Assembly: GCA_965218085.1 (NCBI GenBank)
Contig: CBDCKF010000001.1
Span: 619,983 to 683,982, forward strand
From: Terriglobia bacterium
GTDB lineage: Bacteria; Acidobacteriota; Terriglobia; 20CM-2-55-15
Direction of reading: 5' to 3'
Length of the DNA stretch: 64,000 nt
In this document: piece by piece, positions 29,048 through 29,431 of the stretch
How positions within the stretch are numbered: the first letter of the stretch is position 1
Layout of the letters: each line of letters starts with the position of its first letter
Translations under genes and position numbers: made by a program
Notes under the pieces: generated by a model
The model's database searches: none
Told to the model about the DNA's origin: nothing
Seen by the model: the letters and a program-made list of their open reading frames with translations, nothing else

Positions 29048-29431
29048 CTAGAAATCTTCAGGGAAGTCCGTGTTCCGGCTGGAGTCCCAATCGGCAACCT
29101 CTCCGTTCGGAGCCTTCACAAACCCCAGCAGACAGCCAGGTGCGCCGTCCCTTAATGGATGGCATCGCACCTTGATCGGGTCGCCTGTCTCAATGCCAGG
29201 GTCTTCCCTTCGACCGCCACCTTCCAGCGCCCACAACTGCTTCTGGCCGTCCGCCTTTGTCACCTCCATGTAGATCCATGAATGTGGATTTATCAAATGC
29301 AACTCCGTGACCACACCATCGATGTCGATCGTTTCCTTGTCGTACTGTCCGTGGGCATGGTGCGACCATCCCGACAAGGCCACTGCCAAGACGCCTGCCG
29401 CTGCGAATCCGAAAGCCAGTCTGAAGCGCAT
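29048..29431 (-). CDS. Small secreted N-terminal-His protein, subtype 1 (HHAHGQYD; VTELHLINPHSW; RCHPLRDGAPGCL), copy 1
   Basis: Signal peptide then HHAHG. Two Cys residues spaced 10 apart. Directly upstream of B1 (7-nt gap). Confidence 0.65.
   Translation of the reverse strand: MRFRLAFGFAAAGVLAVALSGWSHHAHGQYDKETIDIDGVVTELHLINPHSWIYMEVTKADGQKQLWALEGGGRREDPGIETGDPIKVRCHPLRDGAPGCLLGFVKAPNGEVADWDSSRNTDFPEDF

Follow-up and report, generated by a model that had tools for sequence, protein, structure and literature searches.

A DUF6152 protein from an Acidobacteriota genome: predicted OB fold, probable His-His N-terminus and neighbouring secreted partners

The DUF6152 genes of the window and their partners

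We studied a window of 64,000 nucleotides (the whole stretch of DNA presented above, from contig CBDCKF010000001.1 of a Terriglobia bacterium) around a small gene, hereafter the target, at 29048-29431 on the minus strand, whose product belongs to the Pfam family DUF6152. An earlier note, made from the letters alone, had suggested that the target and its relatives in the window may be periplasmic metal-binding proteins of the CopC type. The target scores 64.7 bits against the DUF6152 model (PF19649, cut-off 27) and the tested copies score between 64.7 and 92.3 bits. DUF6152 stands in Pfam as a "family of unknown function"; it is catalogued but entirely uncharacterised. We found no literature under its name and no NCBIfam model for it or for the two partner families described below, and no solved structure could be detected in the PDB with either the target sequence or the DUF6152 profile as query. 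In a profile search over 1.84 billion cluster representatives (clusters at 50% identity), E<=1e-3 gave 15,778 members and the stricter E<=1e-10 gave 9,032. Most of them are from Acidobacteriota, Gemmatimonadota and Proteobacteria of soils and sediments.

The target translation runs MRFRLAFGFAAAGVLAVALSGWS↓HHAHGQYDKETIDIDGVVTELHLINPHSW...KVRCHPLRDGAPGCLLGFVKAPNG..., where the arrow marks the predicted cleavage, and the full protein is MRFRLAFGFAAAGVLAVALSGWS↓HHAHGQYDKETIDIDGVVTELHLINPHSWIYMEVTKADGQKQLWALEGGGRREDPGIETGDPIKVRCHPLRDGAPGCLLGFVKAPNGEVADWDSSRNTDFPEDF. The N-terminal sequence is that of a classical Sec signal, with an n-region MRFR, a hydrophobic core of 15 residues and G-W-S at positions -3 to -1, directly followed by HH as precursor residues 24-25. 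The VTE.H and CHP.DG...GF.K motifs to which the earlier note had drawn attention are present: in mature numbering, VTELH occupies residues 18-22, CHPLRDG residues 67-73 and GFVK residues 80-83, with a further Cys at 77. A ribosome-binding site, GGGAGGA, lies 5 nt 5' of the ATG. A scan for promoters and terminators around the target and the partner gene that follows it gave background level only.

An hmmsearch over all six reading frames recovered six intact DUF6152 paralogues and two remnants from the window (Table 1). One of the remnants, 25784-26047, is chimeric and has two NPH motifs. The junctions listed in the earlier note (ALA↓HH, SAA↓HH, AWG↓HH and GWS↓HH) were all recovered, in the translations and in the hmmsearch, and so was the copy with Pro at -1, which reads AWP↓HH. 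Four of the six copies, the target included, belong to a subfamily with two Cys. Of the other two, the copy at 36916-37317 is missing the CHP.DG block and has 3,334 homologous clusters. Each intact gene is accompanied by a gene of one of two secreted families, here called partner A and partner B, and the two types match: the four Cys-type genes come with four partner A genes, the two others with three partner B genes.

Partner A matches nothing in Pfam or NCBIfam, nor does its sequence resemble that of a protein of known structure; its homologues form 980 clusters, and it carries two invariant Cys. We scanned the Cys-subfamily alignment against 185,579 species genomes, which gave 587 relatives, and analysed the best 80 loci; they come mostly from metagenome-assembled genomes (MAGs) of Acidobacteriota (Vicinamibacterales, Bryobacterales, Terriglobia), with some Gammaproteobacteria and Gemmatimonadales. 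Partner A adjoins the Cys-type DUF6152 gene in 77 of these 80 loci; of the three loci without it, two are situated at the end of a contig. The two genes share a strand in 90 of 93 pairs, and the median distance between them is 15 nt. As to the N-termini of partner A in the window, three of the four copies (34300-34365, 59719-59790 and 62344-62415) have the predicted junction FA↓QEW, in which Gln is probably the first mature residue, and the target's own partner (28936-28996) reads SFPQAQ↓W.

Partner B flanks both copies without Cys. It has no Pfam match and no PDB match, and a relation between partners A and B was considered and rejected, as hhalign shows none. Partner B adjoins DUF6152 in Acidobacteriota, Alphaproteobacteria and Gammaproteobacteria: it follows main-type DUF6152 genes in other Acidobacteriota contigs and it is also paired with DUF6152 in cultured Novosphingobium, Sphingobium, Croceibacterium and Sinorhizobium. 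Five proteins from gammaproteobacterial MAGs are fusions, which start with the signal peptide and A↓HH, continue with DUF6152 and end with partner B. Wherever we saw a true multidomain form (these five fusions and C-terminal extensions), the DUF6152 domain bearing HH is the N-terminal one, as a need for a free alpha-amine would predict; in the tandem protein P0361 the second domain is without HH.

The partner B genes of the window contain a direct repeat of 300 nt: 35718-36017 and 37489-37788 are 100% identical and form the 3' ends of two of these genes, and two diverged remnants lie at 36636-36935 and 43630-43859. The open reading frame (ORF) 35723-36901 consists of the remnant of a 3' end in frame with a complete partner B gene, whose true start is at 36613. 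The repeat and the remnants point to a recent duplication, a gene conversion or an assembly effect.

Table 1. Position, strand and supporting evidence of the features discussed (window coordinates, except where a locus or species is named)
Feature	Position	Strand	Evidence
Target gene, DUF6152 protein of the Cys-containing subfamily, 127 aa	29048-29431	minus	translation
Sec signal peptide MRFRLAFGFAAAGVLAVALSGWS of the target, predicted cleavage after G-W-S	29363-29431	minus	translation; conservation of the -3/-1 pattern and of the HH position in homologues
His-His, predicted mature residues 1-2, proposed chelating N-terminus	29357-29362	minus	homologue conservation; invariant in a further alignment
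VTELH, mature residues 18-22, end of strand beta1; residue 22 candidate ligand	29297-29311	minus	alignment and model
NPH, mature residues 25-27, beta1-beta2 loop (L12)	29282-29290	minus	alignment
CHPLRDG....C block with two Cys, beta4-L45-beta5, subfamily-specific	29132-29164	minus	Cys-subfamily alignment
Partner A1, secreted 240-aa protein, 51 nt 3' of the target, predicted PsbP/Mog1-like fold	28274-28996	minus	
DUF6152 paralogue without Cys, junction ALA↓HH	21774-22193	plus	hmmsearch
Partner B1, secreted 279-aa protein, second unannotated family	22254-23093	plus	hmmsearch E 1.8e-72; no Pfam match
DUF6152 remnants	25784-26047 and 32380-32515		hmmsearch
DUF6152 paralogue, Cys type, junction SAA↓HH	33103-33528	minus	Pfam 84.7 bits; hmmsearch
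Partner A2, immediately 5' of the 33103 copy	33655-34365	minus	46% identical to A1; hmmsearch E 1.5e-94
Partner B2, 3' of the 36916 copy	35723-36613	minus	hmmsearch
Remnant of the 3' end of another B gene, between B2 and the 36916 copy	36636-36901	minus	
DUF6152 paralogue, main family type, HHS...VEWQNPH, junction LLA↓HH	36916-37317	minus	Pfam 92.3 bits
Partner B3, 5' of the 36916 copy	37494-38399	minus	hmmsearch
TonB-dependent-receptor-type outer-membrane protein	39825-43148	minus	Pfam OMP_b-brl_4 581 bits and CarboxypepD_reg
DUF6152 paralogue, Cys type, junction AWP↓HH	58278-58679	plus	hmmsearch
Metallo-beta-lactamase-fold gene between the 58278 copy and A3	58737-59504	plus	Pfam
Partner A3	59719-60432	plus	hmmsearch E 2.5e-117
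DUF6152 paralogue, Cys type, junction AWG↓HH, residue 22 Tyr	61920-62327	plus	hmmsearch E 5.2e-39
Partner A4, 16 nt 3' of the 61920 copy	62344-63093	plus	hmmsearch E 5.9e-112
DUF6152-partner B fusions	L065:9591-10652; L076:4235-5248; L076:6430-7461; L079:3800-4852(-); L099:6410-7462		
Compact run DUF6152, B, DUF6644, DUF6644	L108:7950-10471 (Sinorhizobium mexicanum)		

Conservation across the family and the predicted fold

We aligned 388 homologues of DUF6152 and numbered them from the predicted mature N-terminus. His1 is kept in 383 of them and His2 in 384, while Pro26 and His27 of the NPH motif are invariant (388/388). Gly16, Gly39, Trp44, Gly60 and Gly87 are each present in more than 95% of the sequences, residue 7 is Tyr or Phe in 383, and residue 22 is Glu (197), His (137) or Asp (21), that is, one of the three in 355. 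The only polar residues conserved throughout the family are His1, His2 and the His of NPH, and such a pattern is the expected look of a metal site chelated by an N-terminal His.

The position of the two first His is as regular as their presence. A small residue at -1 followed by HH is found in 120/120 word-index homologues of the target and in 119/120 homologues of the 36916 copy. We then took a diversity sample of 150 representatives from separate 50%-identity clusters, of which a motif script placed 142 as full-length: all 142 read [A/V/L..]-x-A↓H-H-[S/A], 134 of them having Ala as residue -1, and the spacing from His1 to the Asn of NPH is of 24-26 residues in every one of them. The target conforms to this signature (GWS↓HH, NPHSW, spacing of 24 residues). 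Five apparent exceptions look like truncated or mis-started ORFs. The cleavage site is deduced from the -3/-1 rule together with the invariant position of HH after xxA. Both speak strongly for His-His as the mature N-terminus of these small exported proteins, as the earlier note had expected. To judge from these sequences, the occurrence of HH at the predicted signal-peptidase site across the family cannot be chance, and its placement points to a role for the free N-terminus.

The other motifs are of narrower distribution. E.H and CHP.DG...C are confined to the Cys subfamily: the CHP block is invariant in the alignment of this subfamily, whereas the block and both Cys are missing from the main family. 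The main family has K-x-E in place of E-x-H, so that the His of E.H falls at a position of His, Glu or Asp, the choice of residues that one would look for in a metal ligand. The two Cys mostly occur together and look like a disulfide pair rather than metal ligands; the CHPLRDG....C block of the target would then probably be a disulfide with an extra His.

We modelled the mature target sequence with AlphaFold2, from an alignment of 94 sequences. The model has a mean predicted local distance difference test score (pLDDT) of 88.7 and a predicted template modelling score (pTM) of 0.81, with strands at residues 12-23, 28-35, 41-47, 62-70, 76-83 and 89-91. The mature chain of about 100 residues is predicted to form a five- to six-stranded barrel of the oligonucleotide/oligosaccharide-binding (OB) type: the model contains the five-stranded closed barrel and is similar to known OB domains. 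Foldseek against the PDB gave no match below E 1e-3, its top matches were OB folds, and neither CopC nor a cupredoxin or lytic polysaccharide monooxygenase (LPMO) type of sandwich was among the matches. A sequence search of the PDB returned nothing meaningful for the target alone or for the profiles of DUF6152, partner A and partner B. In the model NPH would lie in the loop L12, residue 22 at the end of beta1, and R/K-D-G (with CHP in the Cys subfamily) in beta4 and the loop L45; L12 and L45 would be the loops which flank the canonical ligand face of OB domains. Residue 7 makes a beta-bridge. The constant distance from His1 to NPH argues for a fixed N-terminal arm, and together with the invariant aromatic residue 7 and its bridge it suggests that the arm is docked rather than floppy.

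DUF6152 would in this respect resemble CusF, the BOF family and CcmE, which are small periplasmic OB barrels. CusF is a metallochaperone without an N-terminal His; its ligands for Cu(I) or Ag(I) are two Met, one His and one Trp on beta2-beta3. A CusF-type Cu(I) chaperone was considered and rejected: we found neither the Met/Met/His/Trp site nor sequence similarity, and there is no overlap in Pfam. The predicted model of partner A is an alpha-beta-alpha sandwich similar to PsbP or CyanoP; compared with the proteins of the PsbP/CyanoP/Mog1/DcrB/LpqN fold, partner A is without sequence similarity and has its two invariant Cys. The obligate pairing of a protein of PsbP-like fold with an OB-fold protein is previously undescribed. 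Likewise described here for the first time are the HH signature at the N-terminus throughout the family, the predicted OB fold, two partner families that are near-obligate, the fusions, and the association with DUF6644 and TonB-dependent receptors (see below).

A proposed metal site and its alternatives

We lean, if only slightly, towards the reading that DUF6152 is an exported OB-fold protein which carries a metal site at its N-terminal His and works with its partner. Signal peptidase I would remove 23 residues from the target and free the His-His N-terminus. The alpha-amino group and the imidazole of His1 would be the chelating groups for a transition metal, in the manner of histidine-brace proteins and of the newer N-terminal-His proteins, and His27 of the NPH loop would assist, together with His2 and residue 22 (His in the target, Glu or Asp in most members); a second conserved His is available as a ligand in His27 and in His2. 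In the Cys subfamily, His4, His68 and a probable Cys67-Cys77 disulfide would be added. The conserved aromatic residues 7 (Tyr or Phe) and 31 (Tyr) might contribute in an axial position or in the second sphere. The bound metal would most likely be Cu(II), Ni(II) or Zn(II) being possible.

DUF6152 would be one half of a two-gene periplasmic module, the other half being a dedicated secreted partner: for the target, the PsbP-like protein encoded 51 nt downstream, and for the main family partner B, sometimes fused at the C-terminal side. DUF6152 and its partner would interact, and a relay that handles metal, or a periplasmic activity that depends on it, seems to us more likely than a binding protein that acts by itself. 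In Proteobacteria the module would be joined by two small inner-membrane proteins of the family DUF6644, and often by a TonB-dependent receptor. DUF6644 genes adjoin the module in seven of eight proteobacterial plasmid loci: six of the seven have two in tandem, and L103 has one. Besides the compact run of L108 (Table 1), tandem pairs are found in L101, L104, L105, L106, L107, L057, L072 and L077; there is none in the window. The DUF6644 proteins have about 160 residues, a conserved His in the first hydrophobic segment, an invariant His37 and Arg54, a G-R-W-I motif and a weak similarity to DUF2214; searches of the literature under either family name gave nothing useful. The earlier note had taken the TonB-dependent receptor of the window as fitting a metal or metallophore theme, and the link does recur, in Croceibacterium, in Sphingobium, in the locus L097 and in 7 of the 80 Cys-type loci, only a small part of these.

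Several observations weigh against the metal site or against the relay. Residues 1-10, which include the proposed ligands His1 and His2, have a mean pLDDT of only 74. Within the window, residue 22 of one copy is Tyr, and another copy has Pro just before the predicted cleavage site. We saw no obvious conserved metal site in partner A or partner B, and no metal-responsive regulator or known metal transporter as a conserved neighbour: the regulators near the module are of the LysR, MarR and TetR types, and the wider contexts are heterogeneous (amidohydrolase, PQQ dehydrogenase, metallo-beta-lactamase and sulfonate-type genes). Finally, hhalign found no homology between DUF6644 and CopD (E. coli YebZ), in what is a weak test of one sequence against ten.

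The proposal has precedents. Binding of Ni or Cu was demonstrated by experiment for families picked only because a conserved His follows their signal peptide (PMC12537917): this "signal strapping" led to DUF4198 (Ni, PDB 9GCB), DUF6702 (Cu) and the anglerases Ang-1 and Ang-2. DUF4198 is a 13-strand beta-sandwich linked to TonB receptors, and the conservation of His1 in the families found in this way is of 65-79% (PMC12537917). DUF6152, which is unmentioned in PMC12537917, shares with them a conserved His right after the signal peptide, here a predicted one, and a distal His, metal chelation being for DUF6152 a proposal; it differs from them by a His1 conserved at about 99%, an invariant His2 and an obligate partner gene. 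The histidine-brace copper proteins (LPMO families AA9-AA17, X325, the CuB site of pMMO, and YcnI with its "mono-histidine brace", PMC8424229) have an N-terminal His, which is a bidentate ligand, and a second His; DUF6152 has a predicted N-terminal His and a second His as well. Its predicted fold differs from theirs, and copper binding, T-shaped geometry and oxidative activity are at most proposals for DUF6152.

A bolder form of the proposal is that DUF6152 is an unrecognised class of histidine-brace-type copper proteins on an OB fold, which would make with its partner a new periplasmic enzyme of copper-dependent oxidative activity or a new copper relay across the envelope. We hold it tentatively, as something that would sooner prove wrong than right. 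We found no paper combining "histidine brace" with "OB-fold", and if the N-terminal His-His is a metal site, histidine-brace-type chemistry would be placed on a new scaffold. As a relay, the system would run from the TonB-dependent receptor to DUF6152 and its partner and then to the DUF6644 membrane pair, DUF6152 being the soluble arm; the secreted families A and B and the membrane family DUF6644 would be joined as one system. In either form it would be widespread in soil Acidobacteriota and in Proteobacteria. The scale of the matter is given by about 15,800 clusters at 50% identity for which we found neither literature nor a solved structure, and the module has cultured, genetically workable carriers in Novosphingobium, Sphingobium, Sinorhizobium, Caballeronia and Croceibacterium.

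Among the alternatives, the one that survives best, though we think it unlikely, is that DUF6152 is an OB protein or subunit without metal, which binds an oligosaccharide, a small organic substrate or its partner, the two His serving for hydrogen bonding, acid-base chemistry or docking. OB folds are indeed classic ligand-binding modules, an obligate partner and fusions would suit a structural subunit, and the LysR, MarR and TetR regulators and the varied, catabolic contexts (amidohydrolase, PQQ dehydrogenase, monooxygenases, TauD) would agree with this reading. However, a protein of this kind would hardly explain why, in about 99% of the members, His-His falls right at the signal-peptidase site, nor why DUF6152 always takes the N-terminal place in fusions; and apart from the His pair, the polar residues kept family-wide amount to one His and an acidic or His position.

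Somewhat less probable again is a scavenger or chaperone of Zn, Ni or divalent metals in general, in which HHAHG would form a flexible capture arm with no defined brace geometry. The comparison is with ZinT, whose mature N-terminus is His-rich and may be likened to the HHxHG tail of the Cys subfamily. The recipients of the metal would be metalloenzymes of the periplasm, for example proteins of the metallo-beta-lactamase fold, genes for which lie near DUF6152 at 58737-59504 and 26232-27278 and in L097; moreover DUF4198, another N-terminal-His family, prefers Ni (PMC12537917). Against this, the fixed arm of 24-26 residues and the docked aromatic residue 7 argue for an ordered site, the main family has HHS(F/E) only and no His-rich run, and such neighbours are present in only about 7 of the 80 loci.

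We regard as very improbable a third alternative, in which DUF6152 would handle haem or tetrapyrroles like the periplasmic CcmE, in connection with the TonB-dependent receptor and the HbpS-like neighbours. CcmE OB domains do appear at Foldseek ranks 23 and 49, one fusion has a weak CcmE match in Pfam (E 0.16), HbpS-like genes lie at 30404-31015 and 57116-57607, and TonB-dependent receptors recur. But the likeness to CcmE is one of OB folds in general, with every E value above 0.03; the His through which CcmE binds haem is C-terminal, whereas that of DUF6152 is N-terminal; and HbpS-like genes are found in only 2 of the 80 related loci.

That DUF6152 is a true CopC/PcoC protein, with a cupredoxin-like beta-sandwich and the His1/Asp/His Cu(II) site of CopC, can practically be dismissed: the resemblance is only local, a matter of small size, export and a predicted His as first mature residue (E. 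coli YobA likewise starts VWA↓HAH), whereas Foldseek gives nothing at E<1e-3, Pfam gives DUF6152 only, without a CopC match at E<=0.1, hhalign of the family profile against YobA gives a probability of 1.8% and aligns the signal-peptide junction alone, and E.H and CHP.DG, which the earlier note had read as marks of CopC, belong to one subfamily and are not kept across the family. As an OB barrel is predicted, the CopC reading fails on the fold, the ground on which the earlier note itself had let it stand or fall; membership of PF04234 is rejected, there being no profile similarity and no Ig/cupredoxin-like beta-sandwich. CopC itself has its His1 freed by signal-peptide cleavage and binds Cu(II) with a distal His and a carboxylate, and CopC and CopD are fused in YcnJ. 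What remains is a likeness of organisation. Like CopC/PcoC/YobA, DUF6152 is small and periplasmic, with a predicted His1 and a dedicated partner to which it is sometimes fused, and as with CopC/CopD, the proteobacterial modules adjoin small multi-pass membrane proteins (DUF6644). Unlike CopC, it has a predicted OB barrel in place of an Ig/cupredoxin-like sandwich, and its conserved partners A and B are soluble and secreted. Since hhalign detects no similarity of DUF6644 to E. coli CopD, the parallel with CopC/CopD is an analogy only.

Wider gene neighbourhood

The TonB-dependent receptor gene of the window heads a run of genes on one strand: receptor, a protein of 415 amino acids, B3, DUF6152 and B2. 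The 415-aa protein (38491-39738, minus strand) is secreted and has no match in Pfam or NCBIfam. Clustering of the neighbouring ORFs revealed no further widely conserved neighbour, the analysis being swamped by spurious ORFs of high GC content. HbpS-like, SnoaL and metallo-beta-lactamase genes were considered as conserved partners and set aside, as they occur in 2, 0 and about 7 of the 80 loci, respectively. The HbpS-like genes (GlcG/DUF336; 30404-31015 on the minus strand and 57116-57607 on the plus strand) lie near two Cys-type copies but are probably not part of the module, given these 2 loci in 80; the first of them encodes a protein with a signal or transmembrane segment. The metallo-beta-lactamase-fold protein at 26232-27278 (minus strand) has an EF-hand-like loop, and in L097 a DUF6152 gene, a TonB-type receptor gene and a metallo-beta-lactamase gene form a run.

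In L104, on a plasmid of Sphingobium sp. TomTYG65 (294518-306901), the module of partner B and DUF6152 is duplicated. The same cluster holds monooxygenases, a peroxiredoxin, a TonB-dependent receptor, an NMT1/SsuA-like binding protein and TauD, and looks like an organosulfur-utilisation context.

Two mobile elements lie close to DUF6152 copies in the window. A group II intron reverse transcriptase/maturase (RVT_1 and GIIM; 23459-24733, minus strand) stands between the module at 21774 and a DUF6152 remnant, and a C-terminal fragment of an IS3-family transposase (57882-58241, plus strand) is found just 5' of the copy at 58278. Finally we must note an ORF of 110 amino acids 5' of the target (29611-29943, minus strand), for which the corresponding public contig carries a precomputed Pfam match to PF17648, "Luciferase".

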